35,478 bases of DNA from positions 1-35,478 of IMG/VR virus record IMGVR_UViG_3300045988_136057. The stretch is one strand, 5' to 3'. The DNA is from a virus. The translations under genes and the position numbers were made by a program. The notes beneath the pieces are model-generated. The model searched no databases, was not told the origin of the DNA, and saw only the letters and a program-made list of their open reading frames with translations. Shown here in pieces: positions 56 to 34,078 of this stretch; position 1 is the stretch's first letter; every line of letters starts with the position of its first letter.

Positions 56-1033
56 ACTACTCACCTGCATATAGTTATTGACAATAACGTCCCCAAAGTT
101 CTTTTTGACGTACACCATAGAGCCGCCTCTAACCCTAACATCGCCTATGACGTTATTGAGTTTTATCTCCCTTGTCTTACGATTCTTAGATGAAAGTACA
201 GCCTTAGCCTCAACAGTAGCATTAATATCCTTTTCACCAGGTACTATTAGATACTGCAATCGGCCCCATTTTTTGACGCTCTCCTCGTTGACCGCTATGA
301 ACGTATTCTCTAGTTTCTTGTCCTTACCATTAGGAACAGTCCTCACGACCTTAACATAGTTATATGTATCTTTGTCAATCGATGTAGTATAGCTAATACC
401 ACCGATTACATCATCATCAATATATATATCAGTTTTCAACGACTCGAAAGACTTCAACATGATTTTTCCGTTATCATCATACAGATGATAGTATGCATGA
501 TTCGGTGTATTAATCAAGGTCTTATCTAAGAGTTGCATAATCATTTCTTGTAAAGATTTATCCTTGAATACAATCTGAGGTTTCTCCGGTGTAGTCCATA
601 CCGTATTGTCCAGCTCTCCAACTTTCAGCCCATAATCCTCGCATACGTTCTTAACGAACTCATCGGCTCTCATTGGTGTGAGAACATAGCAGTCTTTATT
701 CTTCAAGTATCGTAGCTGGTCATACGCTATCACAGAGATTACATCTAGGTTATCCCTGCTTTTCTCAAATACATAGCCTTTGAATACATTCACGCCGTTG
801 ACCTCAAATGATACTGCGTTCCCCTCTTCAAAGTTTAGATTAGGGTCTTTAGGTACTTTAAAAGTCAACTTAGAGGGCGTACAGTCTACGGCCCTAGTGA
901 GTTGAACGCCGTCAAGGACGTCTACTATATATTGTGTTTCACCGTTAAGAATTGTTAGATTGTATACAATATCTATAGGCATAGGGGCGACATTCACCGC
1001 CCCGTTGATTTTACTTTTATTATCCTCGGCCAT
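1..1033 (-). CDS. Baseplate hub / XkdQ-like (gpD / Mu gp44-like) tail protein, N-terminal part; continues across the junction into 35423..34912
   Basis: ATG at 1033 overlaps the upstream stop as TAATG. I checked every codon of this frame from 1033 to 2 and found no stop. It is the same frame as the ATG at 22 (=35445). Translation MAEDNKSKINGAVNVAPMPIDIVYNLTILNGETQYIVDVL... and its position after the LysM protein match PBSX xkdQ. Confidence 0.8.
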   Translation of the reverse strand, partial: MAEDNKSKINGAVNVAPMPIDIVYNLTILNGETQYIVDVLDGVQLTRAVDCTPSKLTFKVPKDPNLNFEEGNAVSFEVNGVNVFKGYVFEKSRDNLDVISVIAYDQLRYLKNKDCYVLTPMRADEFVKNVCEDYGLKVGELDNTVWTTPEKPQIVFKDKSLQEMIMQLLDKTLINTPNHAYYHLYDDNGKIMLKSFESLKTDIYIDDDVIGGISYTTSIDKDTYNYVKVVRTVPNGKDKKLENTFIAVNEESVKKWGRLQYLIVPGEKDINATVEAKAVLSSKNRKTREIKLNNVIGDVRVRGGSMVYVKKNFGDVIVNNYMQVSSVTHDFKTGYHSMTLDLRW

Positions 1034-1707
1034 TATTTCAGCCCCTCAGTTTTCAAACTAATAATCTGACCGGCAGCAAGAACGGCAGGAACCGCTATCT
1101 TATTAACTGCTGCTATCTTGAACAGATTGTCAGTATTACCTAGTTCTCTTTTAACTATTTGTCTGAGTGTAGCACCCTTAGAGGCTTTTACGCTCTCATT
1201 CGTGGTCTTACCCTCAACGCTACGGCTTTGTGTAACAGTACCCTTAGCCACGCCGTCTTTATCGGTCTTAATCTCGATACGTTTAGCCCCCCAGGGCTTG
1301 TATTGTTTAAGCCTAATGTTAGCGTAGGCGTCGAATCCGTTGTCAGAATCCTCATCAATAGTATAATCTTCAAGCGTTACCTTGATATTAGTCATTGATA
1401 GCATATCGCCCTTAGGTTTCATTCTAACAACGATGAACTGGAACGGCGTCCTTTGTTTCTTCAACTTTTCAAGCTGGTCTAGGTAGTAACTAGCTTTCTT
1501 AGACTTAAAAAGCATAGACTGATTGAATGGATAATCAGAGTTAGGAAGTAGGAATTTAAAGGCTATCTCAGTCAACCCAGCTGGCTTGATGATATTCACC
1601 TCACCCTTGCCTATCAGTTCTATGACCTCATTCTTACCATTAATGGTAGTCGTCATTTCCTTAGGCGGGATTGGTATCTGCATAGTACCTAAATAAAAGT
1701 AGTACAT
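1033..1707 (-). CDS. XkdP-like tail protein with C-terminal LysM-like domain
   Basis: 224-aa ORF directly after the tape measure gene. C-terminus ATLRQIVKRELGNTDNLFKIAAVNKIAVPAVLAAGQIISL resembles LysM. Gene order matches PBSX xkdO-xkdP-xkdQ. Confidence 0.7.
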   Translation of the reverse strand: MYYFYLGTMQIPIPPKEMTTTINGKNEVIELIGKGEVNIIKPAGLTEIAFKFLLPNSDYPFNQSMLFKSKKASYYLDQLEKLKKQRTPFQFIVVRMKPKGDMLSMTNIKVTLEDYTIDEDSDNGFDAYANIRLKQYKPWGAKRIEIKTDKDGVAKGTVTQSRSVEGKTTNESVKASKGATLRQIVKRELGNTDNLFKIAAVNKIAVPAVLAAGQIISLKTEGLK

Positions 1708-3710
1708 TATACCCCTACCCCCTCTCGTTTAATCATAAAGGCGTCTTTAATACCCTTAGTAATTTGTGTAGTGAATCCGTCAAGGTCTGTTCCGTTGTTA
1801 ATATCAACGTCATTATTCATTACAACATTAATCACATGGGAATCCTGCCACTTTTTGAGTGTTTTATCAATAGCGGATTCTCTCAACGCCTTAATCTCAT
1901 CTTTAGTCATACTAATAGCGTCCGCCGTACGTTTAGCCTCTTTTGCGGCCTTGCCTGTGTTCTTAGCAGTATCTTTATTAGCCTTTGTAGACTCGTCAAT
2001 CTTACTTGTATCGAACTTTAAGCCGTCCTTGCTGAGTTCCGGCATCGTAGGGAGTCCTAAGCTAGCCCCTACGTTGTAGCCATTGTCAAAGGCGTCTGTC
2101 ATGCTCATATAATCCATAGTATCCATGACTTTATATTCATTCGCTATCTCGAAACGCTGCAACATTCCTGTACTATCACCTACTTTATCGATGTTAATAC
2201 CTGGAATCTTATTTATCGCTCCGATTATGTCATTGATACGGCCTTTCACAAAGTTCCAAATACCATTCCATATATCGATGAATAAGTTCCCTACGGATTG
2301 TAGAGGGGCGTGCCATACGTTGGCAAAGAAATTCACAAACGCTGCGACGTTGTTCCATATGAATATGAACACATTCGCCACGGCCGCACCAAATGCGTAA
2401 AAGGCTCCGACGATTATTCCTAATGCACTAATATTAGTGTCAGCGAAGTAGTTGATAGCCTCGACTGCTAGGAAGAACACCACTATCACGGCAATCACAA
2501 GCCCTATAATCCATGTTAAAGGACAAGCATACAAGGCAGCATTTAAGCCCTCTTGTGCTACTATCATAGCGACTATAGCGGCCGTTTCAGCCCAGTCAGC
2601 GACTGTCTTTATTGCTAATGCTCCAGCTGCTATTAAAGAACTACCAGCGGCTATTAAAGATTGTGTAGCGAAGAACCCCATAACACCAGCTAGTATAATC
2701 ATAACCCCTTTAACAATACCGCTATGCTCTCTTAGGAACGAGAACACGCTATTAAACGCCCATATGATAGTGTTCATTGTTTCACCAATAACACCTACTA
2801 TCCAGTAGAACACAGGGGCAGCAGCTTGTATCACATCAACGATACCGTCGACGGCCGTTCTGATAGCGTCTGAGTTCGCCATATCACTTATACGTCTGAA
2901 CACAGGCTCAAATAACTTGATAGCCTTAGATTCAATCTCGGTCATATGGTCGCTCCATTTTTTAGGCATAGCCTTGAATTGCTCTTCAATCTCCGGCATA
3001 TTGTCAACTATAGCTTTCTTGATTACATCAGCCGTTACCTTCCCCTCAGAGGCTAACTTTTTGAGTTCGCCACGAGATACGCCCATAGATTTAGCTATGA
3101 TATTCTCAATCATAGGGGCGTTTTCGGCAATAGAACGGAACTCATCGCCTTGTAACTGACCGCTTGCCATTGCTTGCGTCAACTGTAACATAGCGTTTCG
3201 TTGAGCCTCTTTACTTGCACCGCCTACGATGAATAACTTTTGAATACCCTCCATGAACTCAACGGCCTCTCTAGGGTCAGGGAAAGCGTCATGAGCGGAT
3301 TGAGATAGATGAGCAACGGCCTCAGCCATTGCAAGATAGCCACCTCTAGCCCTCAATGCAGATTGATATATCATATCATTGAGTACTATAGCGTTCTGTT
3401 GACTGCCTGCGACTAGCTGCATACGGGCCTGTACACTCGCCCAATGCTCAGCAGTAGATTGTAGATTATTGATAGCGTTATGTGTAGCGGCAACCGCCCC
3501 CATAATACCATTCGCCAGCATATTGCCTACTGTACTATTCAGTACACCCCCTAAACTAAAGGATAGGCTCGTACTTGCTGCGGTTACTGCACTCATCTTA
3601 GAGTGCAACGTGTTCATCTTGTTATAAGCGTTTGTGGTCGCCGTAGCTGCTGCGTTCATAGCGTTAGGGATATTTGTCTGTAAACTTATATAGTTAGATA
3701 ATGTAGCCAT
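1707..3710 (-). CDS. Tail tape measure protein
   Basis: 667 aa, follows the chaperone pair. Has an alpha-helical Ala/Gln-rich N-terminal region and a long central block of hydrophobic helices typical of tape measure proteins. Confidence 0.85.
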   Translation of the reverse strand: MATLSNYISLQTNIPNAMNAAATATTNAYNKMNTLHSKMSAVTAASTSLSFSLGGVLNSTVGNMLANGIMGAVAATHNAINNLQSTAEHWASVQARMQLVAGSQQNAIVLNDMIYQSALRARGGYLAMAEAVAHLSQSAHDAFPDPREAVEFMEGIQKLFIVGGASKEAQRNAMLQLTQAMASGQLQGDEFRSIAENAPMIENIIAKSMGVSRGELKKLASEGKVTADVIKKAIVDNMPEIEEQFKAMPKKWSDHMTEIESKAIKLFEPVFRRISDMANSDAIRTAVDGIVDVIQAAAPVFYWIVGVIGETMNTIIWAFNSVFSFLREHSGIVKGVMIILAGVMGFFATQSLIAAGSSLIAAGALAIKTVADWAETAAIVAMIVAQEGLNAALYACPLTWIIGLVIAVIVVFFLAVEAINYFADTNISALGIIVGAFYAFGAAVANVFIFIWNNVAAFVNFFANVWHAPLQSVGNLFIDIWNGIWNFVKGRINDIIGAINKIPGINIDKVGDSTGMLQRFEIANEYKVMDTMDYMSMTDAFDNGYNVGASLGLPTMPELSKDGLKFDTSKIDESTKANKDTAKNTGKAAKEAKRTADAISMTKDEIKALRESAIDKTLKKWQDSHVINVVMNNDVDINNGTDLDGFTTQITKGIKDAFMIKREGVGV

Positions 3711-4380: not shown

Positions 4381-4854
4381 ACCGTCTAACTCTTTAAAGT
4401 GTTCTGCGAACTTAACGCCCTCGAAAGTAAAGGAATGTTCGCTTTCAAGGTACTTACCGTCTGCGTCAAAGTTAGCAATAGGATATTCATCAAGGTTGAC
4501 CTTTTCCAAGATTACAGTTCTAGGGCCTGCATTAGAGGTAGGGTCATCATTAGTAACTTGCATATCGAAGTATGTATCAGTACCAGTCTTGACGTACTTT
4601 TCGCACATTTCATCGAAAAGTGCTGTGTTATGGTAGATTGTAAGTTTACCTGTATAGTCTACAGAGGTAGACTTATTACCTCTAGCCATGCGGCCAAGAA
4701 TACCTACTGTTTCCTTGTTTTTCTTAGCGGTTGCGGTCAAGTTTTTCGCTTGAAATAATAGTTTTCGTGTACCATTTACTACGATGTAGCAGCTGGCAAG
4801 TTTAGCGGAGATTACGTCCCCAGCCTCCATAGTTCGGATTGCGTCTAAAGCCAT
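4369..4854 (-). CDS. Tail tube protein (XkdM-like)
   Basis: 161 aa, directly downstream of the sheath gene. Sequence and size resemble PBSX XkdM-family tube proteins. Confidence 0.85.
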   Translation of the reverse strand: MALDAIRTMEAGDVISAKLASCYIVVNGTRKLLFQAKNLTATAKKNKETVGILGRMARGNKSTSVDYTGKLTIYHNTALFDEMCEKYVKTGTDTYFDMQVTNDDPTSNAGPRTVILEKVNLDEYPIANFDADGKYLESEHSFTFEGVKFAEHFKELDGMQA

Positions 4855-4866
4855 TTATTAAGCCCC

Positions 4867-6222
4867 CTATTCTACGACTACTGTCATGTACAATTTTTCC
4901 ATTGCAACGGTAGGCTGCAAGGATACAGTAACAACAACGTCCTCTTTCTTATCACCTTGAACTGGCATTTCAATATCTTTGTCATCAAAGCCTTGAATTG
5001 CACGCACTTTTTGGTATTCCTCAGCCAAGAATACGAGGTCGCCCCATAAGGATTTACGGCCGTCTGCGTCATTCTGAGCCTTATCAAGATACGTTTTGTT
5101 GAACAAGTGAGCTGCGTCAATCGCCCAGTTATCAAGCACTCGGATTACTTGATTGTAAGAGAAGTCTACGTTTTTCTCTTTTGTGAACTCAGTAAAGGTA
5201 TTGATGTCCTTAGCCACTCGAACGTCGCCCTTGATGTTGCCACCTACTGGGTCTGTTACGATATGGAACATGAACATACCGTCTTTGATTGCTTGCTCAA
5301 TCTCATACTGCTTGTGTTTAGTATCAACAGTATATTCGCCGTTGTATACCTCATTCCCTACTGTACGATTGATAGGGCAAGCTGCCTCTTTACCAGTTAC
5401 CCAGTACGCTAAGCTGCCTTTAGGTGTAGCCTCGTCTGTAACGTCATTCAAGATACTGATAACGCCCTCATGGTTTACCTTTTTCTTGCCATGAATTACA
5501 AGCTGGAACTTAGCCCCTGTTTGGTTACGGCAACGGTCAGTAAAGTTAATCAACAAGGATTTAACTGTTTCGTCATCGCCAGCATAACCTAAGATGTTGA
5601 AGTAGTAAGGCTCAATCATATCCAAGCCGTCTTGATAATTTTGAAGTGTGATTGCACTACCATTAGAGCCACCTGTAAACGCCTTGTATGCGGTCGCTGT
5701 CAAGTTACCGGACTTAGTGAATGTTACAAAGTCATTGTCTACTAATTGAGTAGCGTCCTTTAAGCCTTTTTGAATATCTACTGTTTTACGCACGCCGTCT
5801 GTTGTAAGGTAAGTAGTTACTACGAATTTACCCGCCTCGTCTGGGTCGTTTTGTACAGAGAATCCTAAGTCATTACCTCGAACGCCTTTATATTTAGCCT
5901 TGCCTACCTCAGATGTAGCCTGCTCGCCGTCGCTATTCAAACGATAGAAATAGCCAGTCTTTAGACCGATGAATAAATCACGTAAGCCTTTCATTTTGTC
6001 ATTACCGTAGTCATAACCAAAGTACTTGCGGCAGTTCTTTTGGAACTCATCAGCGTCTACTCTAAAGACCTCACCAGCAACGCCCCAGTCAAGGTCAAGC
6101 AACATAGCACCGAAACCTCGGTCAGATACATCGGCGTATGCACGATTTTTAGATACAAAGTTAATATATGTACCTGGCATTGTTTTGTTTTTAAACAAGA
6201 AAATACCGCCACCTAAAGCCAT
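4867..6222 (-). CDS. Contractile tail sheath protein (XkdK-like)
   Basis: 451 aa. N-terminus MALGGGIFLFKNKTMPGTYINF is typical of sheath proteins. Followed by tube and chaperone genes. Confidence 0.9.
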   Translation of the reverse strand: MALGGGIFLFKNKTMPGTYINFVSKNRAYADVSDRGFGAMLLDLDWGVAGEVFRVDADEFQKNCRKYFGYDYGNDKMKGLRDLFIGLKTGYFYRLNSDGEQATSEVGKAKYKGVRGNDLGFSVQNDPDEAGKFVVTTYLTTDGVRKTVDIQKGLKDATQLVDNDFVTFTKSGNLTATAYKAFTGGSNGSAITLQNYQDGLDMIEPYYFNILGYAGDDETVKSLLINFTDRCRNQTGAKFQLVIHGKKKVNHEGVISILNDVTDEATPKGSLAYWVTGKEAACPINRTVGNEVYNGEYTVDTKHKQYEIEQAIKDGMFMFHIVTDPVGGNIKGDVRVAKDINTFTEFTKEKNVDFSYNQVIRVLDNWAIDAAHLFNKTYLDKAQNDADGRKSLWGDLVFLAEEYQKVRAIQGFDDKDIEMPVQGDKKEDVVVTVSLQPTVAMEKLYMTVVVE

Positions 6223-14008: not shown

Positions 14009-14764
14009 TTAGTCCTTTACGTTCTCAAACTTATAACCATATTTCTTTTGGTTACGTTTGAGGAAGTTGTCTACTGCCGCATTGCTATCCTTACCACGCA
14101 AGCCCTTTTTACGAGCCGTTGCTACTGCCTTAGTGAATCCGGCCGTATCAAAATGAGTTCCTTTAGTGATTTTACGGTAGCCACCACTATGTGTAGCAAC
14201 GATAGACTTAGCCTTTGTCCCTGCTAGTGCGAGCATATCAGCAGGACTAAAACTACTGTTATTAGGGTGATTATGTACAAGTGTACTGCCCTTATGGATT
14301 CGACCAGGCAGCCCTACGTTACTTTTACCGCCATGACTATAAGTATGTACAAAGCCGTTACTATCAATCTGAATCAAGTGTTCTTTATCACTCTTACCGT
14401 GCTTATTACGGAACGCCGCTATAGCGTCCCTCTCAGTCTTGGTCTTGATTTTGTTGTTCATTCGACTAGGCAAGTCGCCGCTCGTCTTACCAGTACGACC
14501 AGCTGCGTTACGCCACTCGTACTTATTAGCACCGGTACCGCTTGCACCACGACCGCCCTCGACTCCGAACTCAATATCTTCAAGTTCCTCAATCAAGGCA
14601 CTAGCTAGGGAATGACTTTCAAGGTCTGAAATAATCTCGGATTCATCTGTTACAGAGTTCCATAGTTCCCATTTGTTACCAGGTCTTTTAAACATGATAT
14701 AAGTATCATTCAGTTCGACCATGTTGTAGTCAATCATCTTCAATACAAAACTTTTAATCTTCAT
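14009..14764 (-). CDS. RadC-like JAB/MPN-domain protein with unknown N-terminal domain
   Basis: Start placed at ATG 14764 (RBS GAGGTG). The C-terminal half EHLIQIDSNGFVHTYSHGGKSNV...STLVHNHPNNSSFSPADM resembles the RadC/JAB E...HNHP...S..D motif, with a spacer one residue shorter. Confidence 0.55.
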   Translation of the reverse strand: MKIKSFVLKMIDYNMVELNDTYIMFKRPGNKWELWNSVTDESEIISDLESHSLASALIEELEDIEFGVEGGRGASGTGANKYEWRNAAGRTGKTSGDLPSRMNNKIKTKTERDAIAAFRNKHGKSDKEHLIQIDSNGFVHTYSHGGKSNVGLPGRIHKGSTLVHNHPNNSSFSPADMLALAGTKAKSIVATHSGGYRKITKGTHFDTAGFTKAVATARKKGLRGKDSNAAVDNFLKRNQKKYGYKFENVKD

Positions 14765-15809
14765 CTTTTTCACCTCGTTTAGACATTCGTTTTGTTACTG
14801 CATTATCAATGTAGCTTACTTCCAGCCCTTTATAATCATATCCAACGTCGCCCCCATAGACTATTATGTTTCTAGGCTCACATGATTCTATAGCGGCCGT
14901 CATTCCCTCAGTCCATACTTTAAAAGCCTCGTCGTCCCTTTTGACCCCTATAGTAGATATGGCAATCGTACCACCTTTAGGAATCCCTAGAAAAGCAAAG
15001 TCAAACGTACGGCTATCTCCCCAGGATACAGTAGGAATGACCGTGCAGCCTAAATCTTGCATAATCTGACCGACTAGCCTCGACCGATATATGTTCCATA
15101 TCATCATAGCGATAGGCATATCAAGATATAGACTAAAGTCCGGTGTCAGTACACAGTCCCATTCTGCAAGTATAGGGGCGTAGTCGTGAGGATTGTTCCA
15201 TATACGCTCGAATTGATAATCATCTAAGAAAAAGTGTACCCCTGCTTTGTCTACTGGTGGTGTACTTTTCACATAGTTGAATCCGATTAAATGCTCCGGC
15301 CTCACTACGACCCTGTCAAGTGTAGGAATCTGATAGTACCCCTCAGCCCTCGACTCATCGAAGTCATGCAAGTTATAGGTATTCATCGTCCTTTCACGTT
15401 CATTTTCTTTCTCGACCTCAACAGGCTCCGGGTCAACAGGGTCTATAACCTCGAATCCGAAGTCAGTCATATCAAAGTCAAGAATGTCATTCATTTCTAA
15501 GGCTAATAAGCCAGCGTCCCAGCTAGCCGCCTCAGATACTTTGTTATCTGCCAATCTAAAAGCCTTTATTTGTTGCTGCGTCAAGTCGTCCGCTCTAATA
15601 CAAGGCACTACCCTCATTCCTAATGATTGAGCAGCCGCATATCGTGTATGACCGCATATAATCACGTTCTTTTTATCGATGATGATAGGATTCTTGAATC
15701 CGAACTCTTTAATTGAGTTAGCAACTAAAGGTACTGCCTTTTGATTGTTGCGTGGATTCTTGTCATACAGGATTAAATCCGCAAGATTCATTTCTTCAAT
15801 CTTAATCAT
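14754..15809 (-). CDS. ParB-like nuclease domain protein fused to a DUF4417-like domain
   Basis: N-terminus has YDKNPRNN and GHTRYAAA (ParB/sulfiredoxin motifs). C-terminus has HFFLDDYQFERIWNNP...TPDFSLYLDMP, as I recall for DUF4417. Confidence 0.75.
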   Translation of the reverse strand: MIKIEEMNLADLILYDKNPRNNQKAVPLVANSIKEFGFKNPIIIDKKNVIICGHTRYAAAQSLGMRVVPCIRADDLTQQQIKAFRLADNKVSEAASWDAGLLALEMNDILDFDMTDFGFEVIDPVDPEPVEVEKENERERTMNTYNLHDFDESRAEGYYQIPTLDRVVVRPEHLIGFNYVKSTPPVDKAGVHFFLDDYQFERIWNNPHDYAPILAEWDCVLTPDFSLYLDMPIAMMIWNIYRSRLVGQIMQDLGCTVIPTVSWGDSRTFDFAFLGIPKGGTIAISTIGVKRDDEAFKVWTEGMTAAIESCEPRNIIVYGGDVGYDYKGLEVSYIDNAVTKRMSKRGEKDED

Positions 15810-24096: not shown

Positions 24097-24192
24097 TTAC
24101 ATGAATACAATCAATAATACCAAGAATGTTATCACTACTGCCAAGAATGTAGCAAAAGACAATAGCAGCAGTATCAGCATAAACAGGCTCAT
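24097..24192 (-). CDS. Possible 31-aa fully hydrophobic peptide
   Basis: Hand translation: MSLFMLILLLLSFATFLAVVITFLVLLIVFM. Fills the gap between two genes. No clear RBS. Confidence 0.3.
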   Translation of the reverse strand: MSLFMLILLLLSFATFLAVVITFLVLLIVFM

Positions 24193-24196
24193 ACAA

Positions 24197-24379
24197 TCAC
24201 CATTCTATGAATGTACTGCCAGTACACCACCAGTAGCCAAGCATGAATAAGAATGTAAACGTAACAATCAACTGAAAGTTGAAAGTTAATGATTCAACAA
24301 GTTCCTTGCGTTTCTCGTTACGCTCAAAACGGATACTCTTTCTTATCTTATGGCGTTGTTTGTAGTCAACATATGTCAT
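24197..24379 (-). CDS. Small protein with basic N-terminus and C-terminal transmembrane helix
   Basis: 60 aa, ...FNFQLIVTFTFLFMLGYWWCTGSTFIEW. ATG start, same strand. Confidence 0.45.
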   Translation of the reverse strand: MTYVDYKQRHKIRKSIRFERNEKRKELVESLTFNFQLIVTFTFLFMLGYWWCTGSTFIEW

Positions 24380-24394
24380 GTTTATTCACCCCTC

Positions 24395-24580
24395 TTATAG
24401 CAACTCTTCGATACTAACCTCTAAATAGTTAGCTATCTTTTCAATGTTTTTGAGGCTAGGCTCATAATCACCTCGACGCCAGCCTGTGATACTTGACGTT
24501 GGAATGTTTAAGTCCTTGCACATACGATAAGGGGTTAAGCCCTTATCAAATAGAATCTCCTCTATCTTTTTGTACTTCAT
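24395..24580 (-). CDS. XRE-family HTH regulator (Cro-like)
   Basis: 61 aa. LTPYRMCKDLNIPTSSITGWRRGDYEPSLKNIEKIANYLEVSIEELL is a classic XRE HTH. RBS AAAGGGGGA. Operators lie upstream. Confidence 0.8.
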   Translation of the reverse strand: MKYKKIEEILFDKGLTPYRMCKDLNIPTSSITGWRRGDYEPSLKNIEKIANYLEVSIEELL

Positions 24581-24602
24581 CTATCCCCCTTTCTCGTGAG
24601 GT

Positions 24603-24620
24603 GGTACAGATTTCTGTACC
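24603..24620. promoter_or_regulatory. Operator O1: perfect 18-bp palindrome GGTACAGA-TT-TCTGTACC in the XRE gene leader
   Basis: Read directly. Lies between the predicted -10 element and the RBS. Confidence 0.6.
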
Positions 24621-24634
24621 TTATCGACAACTAT

Positions 24635-24664
24635 ATACTACCACAGATTTCTGTACCATGTAAA
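24635..24664 (-). promoter_or_regulatory. Promoter of the XRE/early-left operon, with operator O2 (24640..24657) in the spacer
   Basis: Minus strand TTTACA-N18-TAGTAT, with TGG just upstream of the -10. The spacer is the half-degenerate palindrome GGTACAGAAATCTGTGGT. Confidence 0.55.
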
Positions 24665-24693
24665 GCACTTTTTAAAAAATATTTTTTCATACG

Positions 24694-24727
24694 AAAAAAA
24701 GCCCTATCCACCTAAGCGGATAAGGCT
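24694..24727 (-). terminator. Intrinsic terminator T4
   Basis: Minus strand AGCCTTATCC-GCTTAGGT-GGATAGGGCT (one G-U pair) followed by TTTTTTT. Confidence 0.6.
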
Positions 24728-24733
24728 TTATAG

Positions 24734-24832
24734 ACACAAAAACGCCCCTACGTTCCAGGAGTGAATTGGAGTAGGGGCGTTCTTGCTGATTGCAACATTG
24801 GAGTTAGTGTAAGTACCCAGGAAAGTTACTAC
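24734..24832 (-). ncRNA. Candidate small RNA 2 (~100 nt; own extended -10 promoter and terminator T3)
   Basis: TGTTATAAT at 24839..24847 (minus strand). The 10-bp stem ACGCCCCTAC/GTAGGGGCGT (24742..24780) is followed by TTTTGTG. The transcript contains ACUCCAAU twice and CACUCCUGG. Confidence 0.4.
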
Positions 24833-24856
24833 ACAGTTATTATAACAGATTGAGTG

Positions 24857-24937
24857 AAATAAGAAAAGCCCCTCGGAGGATTTTGAGGGGCTTTTTCTCA
24901 TAATCAAAAGTTTAACCTATGATTAACGCAACATATG
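24857..24937 (-). ncRNA. Candidate small RNA 1 (~80 nt; own promoter and terminator T2)
   Basis: Minus strand TTGTAT-N17-TGATATAAT (-35 at 24966..24971, -10 at 24943..24948). Hairpin GCCCCTC-AAAATCCTCC-GAGGGGC (24868..24891) followed by TTTTCTTATTT. Confidence 0.45.
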
Positions 24938-25118
24938 ACTATATTATATCAAAATGATTGTCATGATACAACATCAGATATATATCAATGTCATTATCTT
25001 AAATCCTGTTGCGAAAATTGGGGCTATATGCTCGTTTTCATAATCTCGTGAGTGTTTATATTAAAGAGATATAAAAGTCGCCTCTGAGGGCTTATTTTGA
25101 GCGTCTTTTTATAGGCAT

Positions 25119-25144
25119 AAAAAAAGAGGCTGCTATGCAGCCCC
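25119..25144 (-). terminator. Intrinsic terminator T1 after the early accessory operons
   Basis: Minus strand GGGGCTGC-ATA-GCAGCCTC followed by TTTTTTT, immediately after the TAA at 25145. Confidence 0.65.
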
Positions 25145-25513
25145 TTAGTCATAATAATCCTCGTCAAAGCACTCGTCCTCGTCATCGTCATCTACCTCGT
25201 CGATACGATAACCAAGCATGAGTTCATCAATTAAGAATCTCACGCCTTGCTCATCATACTCACCTGGGTCAATGATTGGCTCGGCTATCCAGTCAGCCGT
25301 CCAAATGTAGTCAACGCCCTCCGGCCAGTCAAAATCTAAGAAGTACGTCCCGCCTAGTTGCTGAGATTCCTCCCATTGTTCCCTCGTATTTTTGCAGATA
25401 CAAGGGGACGTTCTCATTTCTCTATCATATATAAAGTCCCAGGCGTCCTCATATGTTGAACACTCGTATAGAACTCTGTTTGAGTAATGGTCTTTCACTA
25501 ATAATGTAGTCAT
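25145..25513 (-). CDS. Highly acidic small protein (candidate DNA mimic / anti-restriction)
   Basis: 122 aa. By my count 35 Asp/Glu against 8 Lys/Arg. C-terminus EVDDDDEDECFDEDYYD. Last gene of an early operon. Confidence 0.55.
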   Translation of the reverse strand: MTTLLVKDHYSNRVLYECSTYEDAWDFIYDREMRTSPCICKNTREQWEESQQLGGTYFLDFDWPEGVDYIWTADWIAEPIIDPGEYDEQGVRFLIDELMLGYRIDEVDDDDEDECFDEDYYD

Positions 25514-25528
25514 CTGTTTTCACTCCTC

Positions 25529-27379: not shown

Positions 27380-27391
27380 GTCATTCACTCC

Positions 27392-27844
27392 TTATTCATA
27401 GCGGTGAGTCGCAACACGCTCACCAGTAAAGTTATTTACGATGTACCACTCACAACCAATAGAGCAGTTATGAGCATATTCAGATAGTTCCGCTTGTGTA
27501 TCAGCTTTCATGATGAGTTTATCATCGTGTAGGCTATACATAGAGTACTTACGATACAAGAACTCCATAGGTACGTTGATGTACTTGTCGACGTTTTCAA
27601 GTTCCTCAGTAAACAAGTTTACCTTGCCGTCTATCTCGTTATAAGCCAGGCCGTCGACTAGGCGGTTTAACTGATAACTCCGGTGAGTGTAAAAGTAGAG
27701 GTCATCTACCTTTATCATATAAAAGTCAGTATTGCTTTTATATCGACCTTGCTCAACGTGTTTCTTGATTACCTCGATGTGTAAAAATGGGTTAGCAGCT
27801 TGTAAAATCTCTTGTAATTTCTTTCTTGTGATTCTCTTAGTCAT
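27392..27844 (-). CDS. Hypothetical early protein, paralog of 27858..28136 with a C-terminal extension
   Basis: Start placed at ATG 27844 (AGGAG, 8 nt spacer). Shares KKLQEILQAANP and ...DGKVNL...VDKYINVPMEFL with the upstream gene. Confidence 0.5.
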   Translation of the reverse strand: MTKRITRKKLQEILQAANPFLHIEVIKKHVEQGRYKSNTDFYMIKVDDLYFYTHRSYQLNRLVDGLAYNEIDGKVNLFTEELENVDKYINVPMEFLYRKYSMYSLHDDKLIMKADTQAELSEYAHNCSIGCEWYIVNNFTGERVATHRYE

Positions 27845-27857
27845 CTTATTCACTCCT

Positions 27858-28136: not shown

Positions 28137-28199
28137 GGTGTAGTTTTCCTTTCCTTTTCATCATACCTTTTAGGGTTATTACCCTTACCTCTTGAATAT

Positions 28200-28228
28200 A
28201 GTGTAACATATATTTAAGTTAATTACAA
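28200..28228 (-). promoter_or_regulatory. Early promoter P_C (diverged copy of the P_A/P_B architecture)
   Basis: Minus strand TTGTAA-N17-TACACT with TGT just upstream of the -10 (28223..28228 and 28200..28205). Confidence 0.45.
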
Positions 28229-28260
28229 GTACTTTTTTCAAATTTCATAAAAATTTTTTC

Positions 28261-28318
28261 AAACACAAAAAGAGGGGCTATAGTACTGTGTTCTAGCCAC
28301 TTGTACTATAGCCCCTCT
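28261..28318 (-). terminator. Strong intrinsic terminator ending the late/lysis transcript
   Basis: Perfect 16-bp stem agaggggctatagtac / gtactatagcccctct (28271..28286 and 28303..28318), followed on the minus strand by TTTTGTGTTT. Confidence 0.75.
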
Positions 28319-28391
28319 AAGGTCTATCTTATATCGTTGTAATGCATATGCCACCCTCATATGCTAGGGAGATTGTGAATCACCCCCGGCG

Positions 28392-32424: not shown

Positions 32425-32999
32425 TATGGTAGTACCTCTTGATTTAATGCATAGTGAGTATATTCTTTTAGCTGCTTATGTGTGAATCTTGCTAAGTCGA
32501 TATGTCTATTATATAACAAATCAACATCAAAAATCAGATTCATAGGAATAATATCCTTTAACATCATAGCGACCTTATCCCTTTGTTTCTTGACCCCTAG
32601 CGATACTTTGAAGTGAACGTTATAGTTCTTGAAGTCCTCAATGATTTCATAGTTGCCAGCACCGCATAAGGTATCAAGCAGTTCCCTCAACTTAATCATC
32701 GTGTAGGGACGTTGACCCAGCAATGCTACTAGGATTGAGAAACGTCGAGTATCGATAGAATCATTCTCTTCCGGATATAACTCTAGGATATTCTCCCATT
32801 GAGTGAGGCCGTAGTCATCAGCAGTATAAATATACTGTTCCTTAAAGATTTTAATCATCAAGTCCCATAGAATTTGAATCTCAACGGATTCGATTCTATA
32901 GATTTCTTTCATGTCATCAGAATCTCGTGTTACAGGAACAGCATACTCGGATAAGTCTATTAAACGTCTAAATGTTCCAAAGTCGATTGTATTCATCAT
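32424..32999 (-). CDS. XkdU-like baseplate/tail protein (DUF2313-like)
   Basis: YIYTADDYGLTQWENILEL motif. Follows the baseplate J gene. TAATG junction downstream. Confidence 0.65.
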   Translation of the reverse strand: MMNTIDFGTFRRLIDLSEYAVPVTRDSDDMKEIYRIESVEIQILWDLMIKIFKEQYIYTADDYGLTQWENILELYPEENDSIDTRRFSILVALLGQRPYTMIKLRELLDTLCGAGNYEIIEDFKNYNVHFKVSLGVKKQRDKVAMMLKDIIPMNLIFDVDLLYNRHIDLARFTHKQLKEYTHYALNQEVLP

Positions 33000-34078
33000 A
33001 TAGCCACCAACTCAACATTGCCTAATACTGGTATTTGATTGTGCTTTAAGTCCAATCTTGTAATGGCTCGTCCATTGATGAGTATCTGACCTACGTCAAT
33101 TACATTATCAATATCGATAACTATAGCCGTTACTATGCTCGTCCGAACAGATACATACTCGTCCTCACCTTGCTTAGTCCACTCTTTACGACGTCCTAGC
33201 AGCTTATCAGCTAGTGCCTGCTTAACCTTAGATTGAATCTCAGATATAGTATGACCTTTTTTCATGTTGACCTCAATCTTATAGTTGACCGGAACGACTT
33301 CCGCACTAACAACTGTTACAGTATGACCGATAGGGGCCAGGCCGTAACCTTTCCCCTGATTAGGTGTAGGGTCGAATACGTTTTGTACCTCTTTTACAAG
33401 TTCATTGTCAGCCTTATTGAACTCACTATTCACAATAACCAGCTTAACAGTACCGCCACCGTTCCAACAACGATATACTTTGACGCCACCAACGCCGGCT
33501 ATAGCTAGGGCTTTCTCTTGATAGTCCGCACCATTACCGCCATACGCCTTTGATTTAATGGCTCTAAAGTACCGCTCTCTAAAGACCTCAGTTTCTTCCT
33601 CGTCTTCGCCAGGTGTGATAAGTTTCGTCAACTTAGATTCAGTCAGTCCATTGAGGCCGCTTATTGGTGTGATTGTACCAATGCTATTGTTGACAACACG
33701 GCCAGGAGTTTCAGCCACTAGCTTATATCTGTTTTCAGCTGCATTGATGACCTCAGATACAGAGAAGTTGAACTCATTAAAGTTGAATCGAGTACCAATC
33801 GGAACAGCAATATTGAACTTGCCCTCGAACTCAGCGAATGTAGCAGGCTCCGGTGTAATATTAAACTCAGACGCTCGTAAGATAAGAAAATCTCTATCAG
33901 CAGTTGCAGCATATGACTGTTTTAGAATCACGTCCGCCATAATGTAAAGTTCCGCTATCTCTTGTGATACTGGCCCTACTGAGTCGAACATGACGCTACC
34001 CTCACGCTTGTCGTAGTTATCTTTTGCTCGGTCGAGGATACGTCGTATAATCCTCTCACTTGTCATGTGTTCATACAA
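32996..34078 (-). CDS. Baseplate J-like protein (XkdT-like)
   Basis: 360 aa with conserved position. Start ambiguous: TTG at 34078 or ATG at 34066. Confidence 0.85.
   Translation of the reverse strand: MYEHMTSERIIRRILDRAKDNYDKREGSVMFDSVGPVSQEIAELYIMADVILKQSYAATADRDFLILRASEFNITPEPATFAEFEGKFNIAVPIGTRFNFNEFNFSVSEVINAAENRYKLVAETPGRVVNNSIGTITPISGLNGLTESKLTKLITPGEDEEETEVFRERYFRAIKSKAYGGNGADYQEKALAIAGVGGVKVYRCWNGGGTVKLVIVNSEFNKADNELVKEVQNVFDPTPNQGKGYGLAPIGHTVTVVSAEVVPVNYKIEVNMKKGHTISEIQSKVKQALADKLLGRRKEWTKQGEDEYVSVRTSIVTAIVIDIDNVIDVGQILINGRAITRLDLKHNQIPVLGNVELVAI

Follow-up and report, generated by a model that had tools for sequence, protein, structure and literature searches.

Two predicted small-RNA genes in a conserved non-coding island at the lysogeny position of a probable Veillonella phage

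INTRODUCTION

The LhrC1-5 small RNAs (sRNAs) of Listeria monocytogenes, about 100-140 nt long, have their own promoter and intrinsic terminator and carry motifs complementary to Shine-Dalgarno (SD) sequences; LhrC has three redundant CU-rich sites, in loop A, in a single-stranded stretch and in the terminator loop, each of which binds the ribosome-binding site (RBS) of lapB (PMC4132741). Here we describe a locus of comparable layout in IMG/VR virus record IMGVR_UViG_3300045988_136057, whose 35,478 nt (the whole stretch analysed, hereafter the window) include an island free of conserved open reading frames (ORFs) at 24581..25144, with two candidate sRNA genes. The second of these, candidate 2, can be likened to LhrC and to the wider class of CU-rich sRNAs of low-GC Firmicutes (RsaE/RoxS, RNAIII hairpins, SprD, FsrA). 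It differs from the LhrC/RsaE class in its motif, CUCC (ACUCCAAU, CACUCC) rather than UCCC, in its setting, a phage of a Negativicute rather than a bacterial chromosome, and in having no sequence or covariance-model similarity to any Rfam family; its binding is predicted.

Phage sRNAs with a promoter and terminator of their own have been found at intergenic or moron-like positions, and a role in modulating host or phage expression is proposed for them (PMC12197685). Such RNAs (SprY of Staphylococcus aureus phi12, StxS, DicF, and those of lytic Pseudomonas and Staphylococcus phages) share the layout of the island units without homology to them, and the island stands apart in having two tandem units exactly in the slot of a lost lysogeny module. 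We know of no such example from Veillonella, which is very probably the host here, or from other Negativicutes. Small phage RNAs at an immunity or early-control region are also represented by the P4 CI and P1/P7 c4 RNAs. These pair with complementary sequences in the transcript of the adjacent operon, whereas the seeds of both our candidates find no complementary site in the transcript of the neighbouring operon, and the clade that carries the island shows no sign of a lysogenic state. A further parallel comes from virulent phages of Streptococcus thermophilus, for which lysogeny replacement modules are described in a temperate-derived lytic lineage (PMC8470116). There, as at our island, the int-cI region between lysis and replication is replaced while the cro-like and downstream genes remain, but the S. 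thermophilus modules are diverse and contain genes, whereas the island is an ORF-free, sRNA-like cassette, and host and phage family are unrelated.

RESULTS AND DISCUSSION

A conserved island with two self-contained units

The reading that we favour, with a probability of about 0.55, is that the island holds two autonomous sRNA genes followed by an operator-controlled promoter for a gene of the XRE family, all in the slot that lysogeny genes occupy in temperate relatives, and that candidate 2 is an anti-SD RNA of the LhrC/RsaE kind. Every gene of the window lies on the minus strand, as do all features below unless stated otherwise, and 564 nt separate the stop of a 122-aa ORF (25145) from the ATG of the 61-aa XRE gene (24580). 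No other non-coding stretch is as large, the window end excepted; the remaining gaps reach at most 255 nt. Along the gene strand the order is terminator T1, a spacer, promoter P1, candidate 1 (ending at T2), promoter P2, candidate 2 (with T3 and T4), the XRE promoter and operators, an SD and the ATG. Both units show sequence features by which autonomous sRNA genes are recognized, namely a predicted sigma-70-type promoter, an intrinsic terminator 50-300 nt downstream and no conserved ORF.

For comparison we used about 27 metagenomic phage contigs, most of them 34-36 kb and probably complete genomes, recruited via the exact XRE protein, XRE variants (97, 86 and 79% identity) and an 89%-identical YqaJ. 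The gap was compared in L002-L012, L014-L024, L031, L033 and L034, among which candidate 2 occurs as 16 distinct variants. An earlier note on this DNA, made from the sequence alone, had proposed the two sRNAs and had named unrelated or coding sequence at this place in related phages as evidence that would speak against them; every related genome keeps the non-coding gap, with no gene called inside, and the self-contained anatomy of both units is conserved in all relatives found. In L033 and L034 an apparent 768-nt gap is an annotation artefact, the XRE gene being present at 4400..4700 though uncalled.

The ORF-free island of that note was confirmed, its coordinates and motifs also being correct. 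The longest frames are of 59 aa (24728..24907, TTG start), 55 aa (overlapping the end of the upstream gene) and 56 aa (plus strand), none of them conserved among the relatives; the 59-aa frame is disrupted by +2/-1 indels in candidate 2, and its ATG is missing in several relatives. The short SD-linked ORFs that were inspected by eye are likewise not retained, and the indels together with the lost start codons rule out coding small ORFs in the island. Neither island strand has the conserved short ORF by which a type I toxin-antitoxin system would be recognized, and ARAGORN found no tRNA or tmRNA gene.

The four hairpins with U-runs on the gene strand that had been picked out as terminators were all recovered. 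Our terminator scan reports T1 (25146..25124), T4 (24729..24698) and the inner part of T3, while folding confirmed T2 (24891..24868, with a 10-nt loop) and the full T3 (24783..24739); fold z-scores against shuffled controls were -4.4, -4.7 and -7.0, and RNAalifold returned the same structure. Four of about seven strong gene-strand terminators of the whole genome are located in the island. For an RNA anti-CRISPR, a solitary mimic of a CRISPR repeat of the host, hairpin loops of 9-10 nt would in our judgement be atypical.

Both predicted promoters were found at the positions first given for them, with invariant cores. P1 comprises TTGTAT (24971..24966), a 17-nt spacer and TGATATAAT (24951..24943), and P2 the extended -10 box TGTTATAAT (24839..24847), each a perfect extended -10 (TGnTATAAT). 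At P1 the TTG and TGnTATAAT are fixed in relatives and no part of the island varies more than the 17-nt spacer (pairwise difference 0.209); at P2 (pairwise difference 0.023) the box reads TGTTATAAT, or TGATATAAT in L020-22 and L033/34, a change limited to the free position 'n'. After each box come four to six variable bases and then abrupt invariance, 6-7 nt downstream in candidate 1 and 5 nt downstream in candidate 2, which is the pattern expected from a transcription start. The number of TGNTATAAT sites in the window (five, all on the gene strand) is not by itself beyond chance, being reached by 14 of 100 shuffles, and a generic promoter scan of the window was likewise not above shuffles. 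A possible third promoter, TTTGATATAAAT near 25060, is present in most relatives and was set aside, as it has no TG in the window and no terminator of its own.

Candidate 2: structure and constraint

Candidate 2 (~24834..24693) would be transcribed from P2 with a start near 24834, giving an RNA of ~141 nt to T4, or ~97 nt if T3 terminates. Its predicted fold opens with a 5' hairpin, H1 (24807..24834; RNAalifold), formed by GUGUAGUA..UACUUACAC with loop region CUUUCCUGGG, whose helix begins exactly at the onset of invariance, 5 nt past the -10 box. There follows a single-stranded linker of ~22 nt, UAACUCCAAUGU(UA)UGCAAUCAGCA (24784..24806), with the first ACUCCAAU at 24804..24797; its unpaired probability is 0.8-0.99, and ACUAACUCCAAUGU within it is invariant in all distinct variants. 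The long T3 hairpin (24739..24783) has a 13-bp outer stem, an AC bulge and an inner stem UCCA/UGGA, closed by the invariant 9-nt loop AUUCACUCC (24766..24758), which includes a CUCC. Last comes T4 (24692..24729; terminator scan and fold), a strong terminator with a 14-bp stem, a UUAG loop and U7, which in L033/34 retains hairpin and U-run with an altered stem top. The U-run after T3 is interrupted in L006 and L033/34 while hairpin and loop are untouched, a pattern suggesting that T3 owes its retention to the loop and that termination really takes place at T4. The unit as first proposed, a transcript of about 100 nt ending at T3 with T4 as backup, thus stands, but its end moves: T4 is the probable 3' end and ~141 nt the probable length.

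Within a 5-kb region candidate 2 is the most conserved segment, with a mean pairwise difference of 0.038-0.039 vs. 0.10 for the XRE gene, 0.08 for YqaJ and 0.195 for the 122-aa gene. It differs from the relatives by 0.028-0.049, while third codon positions in the same pairs differ by 0.18-0.38 (YqaJ) and 0.47 (XRE), a contrast with binomial P of 1e-8 to 1e-20 across genome pairs. Even in L020, the most diverged relative, candidate 2 with T4 (143 nt) differs at 4.9%, against 38% (YqaJ) and 47% (XRE) of third positions (P ~1e-20). This constraint is not that of a reading frame, since the linker carries a +2 (or +3) insertion in relatives and the T3 loop region a -1 deletion in 4 of the 16 distinct variants.

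Covariation, a check that the earlier note had recommended, came out in favour of T3. Three of its pairs show double changes (C:G to A:U, A:U to G:C, and A:U to G:C in the inner stem), other substitutions pass via G:U, and 100% of T3 cells are paired (99.4% for the named structure overall). Three double-change pairs were reached by none of 500 column shuffles, and slid versions of the structure gave none. RNAalifold alone recovers the same three helices of candidate 2, of which H1 and T4 hardly vary, so that covariation gives no test there.

The motif content of candidate 2 is as it was first described: ACUCCAAU is present twice, 32 nt apart, together with CACUCCUGG. Across the purine-rich 35.5-kb genome CTCC occurs 18 times on the sense strand vs. 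81 times on the other, and 4 of the 18 sense-strand occurrences fall within 24878..24761, 3 of them in candidate 2. Windows of 97 nt with at least three CTCC make up 0.15%, a share small enough to be accounted for by windows overlapping candidate 2 alone, although window positions are not listed. All 16 distinct variants of candidate 2 keep its three CUCC motifs unchanged, and the linker and T3-loop copies are predicted to lie unpaired (probability at least 0.8), so that the RNA would expose at least two C/U-rich motifs, as do sRNAs of the LhrC/RsaE type, in the form CUCC instead of UCCC. We regard candidate 2 as very likely a functional, independently transcribed small RNA. Its anatomy, conservation, lack of coding capacity, hairpin covariation, rare motifs and synteny are directly visible in the sequences, from which its transcription, RNA ends, base-pairing function and targets are inferred.

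Candidate 1

Candidate 1 (24857..24936, ~80 nt), delimited by promoter, fold and terminator T2, would be a second, less constrained sRNA. An unpaired 5' end, AUAUGUUGCGUYAAUCA, is followed by a hairpin UAAUCA..UGAUUA and then by T2 (stem 24891..24885 / 24874..24868, loop AAAAUCCUCC, U-run). The minimum free energy is -26.3 kcal/mol (z -4.4), 94% of cells are paired across relatives, and one pair shows a double change. Candidate 1 is probably also a functional, independently transcribed small RNA, with weaker support than candidate 2.

Two of the proposals made for this RNA did not survive the comparison. The UCCUCC of the T2 loop, put forward as an exposed anti-SD motif, is altered in L003, L006, L019 and L020-22 and inverted in L011, and is therefore not under selection; the conserved part of candidate 1 is the unpaired 5' end CAUAUGUUGCGUYAAUCA, not the terminator loop. 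Likewise the motif AUGUUGC..AAUCA, said to be common to both candidates, is interrupted by a TA insertion in about one-third of relatives.

The change in L011 (~5700..5712, corresponding to window 24884..24875) merits description in its own right. There the 10-nt loop of T2 reads GGAGGATTTT, the exact reverse complement of AAAATCCTCC, on an unbroken stem; this is a hairpin-loop inversion, presumably produced by template switching.

Position in the lysogeny slot

Among named sequences, YqaJ and the portal protein have their closest relatives in Veillonella genomes and metagenome-assembled genomes, and the host is thus very probably Veillonella, a Negativicute. Phages with 62-69%-identical YqaJ are temperate (L025-L029 and L032; e.g., L029 at 607..3669). 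On the opposite strand these carry a module that encodes a serine integrase, a 157-aa or SNIPE-domain protein and, divergent from a cro of 61-64 aa, a cI-type repressor; it sits between lysis/accessory genes (NikA-like, as in the window) and a cro-ant-YqaJ-RecT-replication series. Only the cro-like gene aligns between the island region and the temperate relatives. No integrase, recombinase or cI-like gene was found anywhere in the window, and this, with the synteny, gives the clade the appearance of a non-integrating derivative. By this comparison a lysogeny module of ~3 kb appears to have been replaced by a 450-nt ORF-free cassette, with the operators retained. The island's position in the int-cI slot, with a cro-like promoter in its 3' quarter, had been missed in the earlier note. 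That the island is a decayed int/cI remnant we rejected, since it shares no DNA similarity with the L025-L029 lysogeny modules. In the temperate relatives, ORF-free gaps lying upstream of YqaJ were considered as sRNA loci and also rejected, as they hold uncalled homologues of two small ORFs described in the last section.

The gene downstream of the island (XRE, 24395..24580) encodes a 61-aa Cro/C1-type helix-turn-helix (HTH) protein with Pfam matches to HTH_26 and HTH_3, both above cut-offs, and is the first gene of the recombination/replication operon; by synteny and 66% DNA identity to the cro of L029 it is the orthologue of cro in the temperate relatives. In its promoter region (24598..24691), TTTACA (24664..24659) is preceded by an A/T-rich element and separated by an 18-nt spacer from TG-TAGTAT (24640..24635). 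Two copies of a palindrome centred on ACAGAAATCTGT form operator O1 (24657..24641), inside the promoter spacer, and operator O2 (GGTACAGAAATCTGTACC, 24620..24603), downstream of the start. In L014-L019 (at ~5940..5985) the half-sites shift symmetrically from ACAGAAATCTGT to ACGAAAATTCGT (or GAGTTTTC variants), and the shift occurs exactly in the genomes with the 86%-identical, 63-aa XRE variant. Since the symmetric change tracks that variant, the operators are predicted to be XRE binding sites, and the co-change reads as a naturally occurring switch in operator/repressor specificity. In its 3' quarter the island thus has the makings of a Cro/operator switch, a small HTH protein with a promoter overlapped by palindromes. 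The proposal that the island is sRNA space is accordingly confined to the two upstream units and fails for 24581..24690, which comprises the XRE promoter/operator and 5' untranslated region.

Possible pairing partners

Of the mechanisms considered, anti-SD pairing, though unproven, is the best supported. In this scheme linker and T3 loop, through their exposed CUCC motifs (ACUCCAAU and UUCACUCCU, respectively), would pair with SDs and block translation initiation, the mode of action of CU-rich Firmicute sRNAs such as LhrC, RsaE and RoxS. The linker seed and the candidate 1 5' end have only self-matches in the phage genome at up to three mismatches, and AUUGGAGU is absent from the sense strand; as the phage genome offers no partner, the linker seed may act on mRNAs of the Veillonella host, and the candidate 1 5' end, if it pairs at all, would likewise have host targets.

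The T3 loop does have potential partners in the phage. The loop, AAUUCACUCCU, is perfectly complementary over 9-10 nt to AGGAGUGAA(U), which occurs three times on the sense strand (0.33 expected), each time as the RBS of an accessory gene upstream of the island: 25527..25519 (122-aa gene), and 27392..27383 and 27857..27848 (68-aa and 150-aa genes). Loop-SD duplexes are predicted at -13.6 to -14.9 kcal/mol, compared with -9.9 to -11.1 kcal/mol for the generic 16S 3' end at these sites; pairing of the loop with other translation start regions is poor. The AGGAGUGAA motif is kept at these genes in relatives and is absent from ~60 kb of temperate relatives. The T3 loop might thus pair with the RBSs of these three genes and perhaps shut them off. 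None of the 150-aa, 68-aa and 122-aa products has a Pfam or PHROG match. For two of the three genes the listed ORF starts are GTG codons within the SD site; translation probably begins instead at the ATGs at 27844 and 27379, which are the starts called in relatives.

Weighing the explanations

Several points weigh against the reading of the island as two sRNA genes with an anti-SD candidate 2. P2 has a poor -35, which lies within the T2 tail. Pairing with phage translation starts, through which the sRNAs were to regulate phage genes, found no support: for neither duplex energies against 59 phage translation start regions nor k-mer complementarity to those regions or to the phage transcriptome did the candidates exceed shuffled RNAs. 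The match between the T3 loop and the three SDs is put forward as a hypothesis only, because it was found post hoc and the three sites are perhaps not independent but of shared ancestry; moreover, purine-rich SDs match any C/U-rich loop. The double changes in T3 stem from two lineages only, the covarying hairpins are terminator-like, and terminators would covary regardless of the sequence upstream. Recent block exchange among these mosaic phage genomes could explain part of the low divergence.

The range of the island is also narrow, with no copy found outside one clade. DNA similarity searches against GenBank phages found nothing, an IMG/VR search with the flanking proteins gave no usable relative, and a 22-mer match there (L013) was a chance match inside a coding gene of an unrelated phage. 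The candidate 2 core pattern is absent from 185,579 GTDB representative genomes and revealed just one further family member in JGI metagenomes, and the candidate 2 covariance model had no match in temperate relatives or in Veillonella prophage pieces, its weak matches of ~20 bits being generic terminators. An Rfam search had been recommended at the outset; with Rfam 15 the whole window gave no match at gathering thresholds, the best score in E-value mode was 28.6 bits against a threshold of 60 (ncr1015), all matches were terminator-driven, and the LhrC and RsaE families were absent even at E<=10. With no Rfam match and one narrow clade, the covariation rests on few independent events.

Each of the rival explanations meets specific evidence against it. 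The island may be a transcriptional boundary or leader, in which a terminator stack insulates the XRE operon, P2 with T3/T4 provides a feed regulated by antitermination or attenuation, and the short RNAs are by-products or cis sites. The lambda PR'-tR' region (6S/StxS RNA) and HK022 put would be parallels, and a short terminated RNA has reportedly been found before as an antitermination by-product. Two operons do meet exactly where the four terminators cluster, terminators and then the operon come immediately after a promoter that looks constitutive, and high primary conservation would also fit a site in RNA recognized by a protein or by RNA polymerase. We nonetheless consider this unlikely: downstream of T4 the XRE operon is served by a near-canonical promoter of its own, with A/T-rich upstream element and operators, no relative has lost the very strong T4, no antiterminator fold competes with T3 or T4 in the predicted ensembles, no recognizable antiterminator gene adjoins the island, and candidate 1, with the same promoter-RNA-terminator layout, precedes another promoter and not genes. 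The retained hairpins also bear on an explanation to which we give slightly less credence, that the conserved sequence acts through protein or ribosome binding or as DNA, be it a decoy RNA titrating a host RNA-binding protein or defence factor, a global anti-SD mimic, an origin or a binding-site array. Compensatory changes preserve them and U-runs follow on the gene strand only, pointing to RNA rather than duplex DNA; candidate 2 has no iteron-like array or AT-rich unwinding signature, the replication genes lie 3-4 kb away with a non-coding gap of their own, and no candidate binding protein was identified. What such an explanation would account for is that the single-stranded linker and the loop are invariant, that linker and candidate 1 5' end lack a complementary partner in the phage, that ACUCCAAU is an exact repeat, as is common for protein-binding sites, and that the T3 loop resembles the 16S rRNA 3' end with one C fewer.

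Least credible to us is that the island is functionless filler left after loss or replacement of the lysogeny module, its terminators and promoter-like boxes conserved by recent block exchange. Filler would suit a narrow family of mosaic genomes, a TGNTATAAT count that is not significant alone, and a sequence without similarity to anything else. It would not be expected to leave a conserved block so sharply bounded, with the P1 spacer and the post-T4 sequence diverging, nor a divergence 4-13 times below that of third codon positions in the same genome pairs; the substitutions that are present are compensatory or G:U-compatible, and the CUCC composition opposes the genome-wide strand bias. Our preferred reading of two sRNA genes can also be extended, doubtfully, to an RNA cassette that took the place of int-cI, with candidate 2 as a dual-purpose RNA: the T3 loop, a mimic of the 16S rRNA 3' end shorter by one nucleotide, would out-compete ribosomes at the unusual AGGAGUGAA RBSs of the accessory genes and in this way time their shut-off, and the duplicated ACUCCAAU seed would silence mRNAs of the host or of resident prophages.

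Veillonella is abundant in the human mouth and infant gut; to our knowledge its phages have hardly been studied and have yielded no known regulatory RNA. A constrained CU-rich phage RNA, if real, would mean post-transcriptional control by a lytic phage in a diderm Firmicute, and the locus would offer a natural case of what fills the lysogeny slot once a temperate lineage stops integrating. Were the relation between T3 loop and SDs true, a phage would be tuning its own RBSs to an RNA competitor rather than to the ribosome; were the extended cassette reading true, an RNA regulator would occupy the repressor's slot in temporal control in a lytic phage of a Negativicute. The locus also supplies parts for Veillonella genetics, namely its two extended -10 promoters and four strong terminators, to which the cro/operator pair adds natural variants in specificity.

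Neighbouring features

T1 (25124..25146; terminator scan), an intrinsic terminator with a 10-bp stem and U7, ends the upstream accessory operon and is retained in all relatives, its sole variation being in the 3-nt loop (ATA/TAT). The moderately conserved spacer of ~140 nt between T1 and P1 (24978..25115) has no significant RNA structure (fold z-score +0.46) and a mean pairwise difference of 0.093. Similar 16-nt sequences (88%) follow the T1 and T3 hairpins, TTTTTATGCCTATAAA (25108..25123) and TTTTTGTGTCTATAAA (24727..24742); this pair, bracketing the spacer and both RNA units, could be the trace of a duplication or insertion, or could be chance. Relatives do not conserve the two copies of the 9-mer CTCACGAGA (at 25052 and 24600), which are hence attributed to chance.

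The 122-aa protein (25145..25513), for which no family match was found, has a very acidic tail, DEVDDDDEDECFDEDYYD, and middle and C-terminal parts that are highly variable among relatives, leaving us with the impression, and only that, of DNA-mimic or anti-defence proteins. Between XRE and YqaJ lie a 60-aa ORF (24197..24379, ending ...YWWCTG..W) and a very hydrophobic 31-aa ORF (24097..24192), with uncalled homologues at the same position in L028 (4619..4880) and L029 (4625..4885); both may encode small membrane proteins.

Further upstream on the gene strand, a second non-coding gap (28137..28391) has a long terminator hairpin (~28325..28275) and then an A/T-rich element and a promoter-like site lacking operators, similar in its upstream/-35 region (AAAAAGTACTTGTAA) to the XRE promoter (AAAAAGTGCTTTACA). 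This is probably the promoter of the accessory operon.

The large ORFs of the window include tape measure, tail sheath, baseplate J, terminase, portal, methylase and a ParB_N-DUF4417 protein, with the tail sheath, baseplate J and ParB_N-DUF4417 genes among 4867..6222, 32996..34078 and 14754..15809. The ParB_N-DUF4417 protein is encoded upstream of the terminase genes. Tail sheath and baseplate J indicate a contractile tail, even though the terminase resembles those of the phiCP39-O group of Clostridium perfringens phages.

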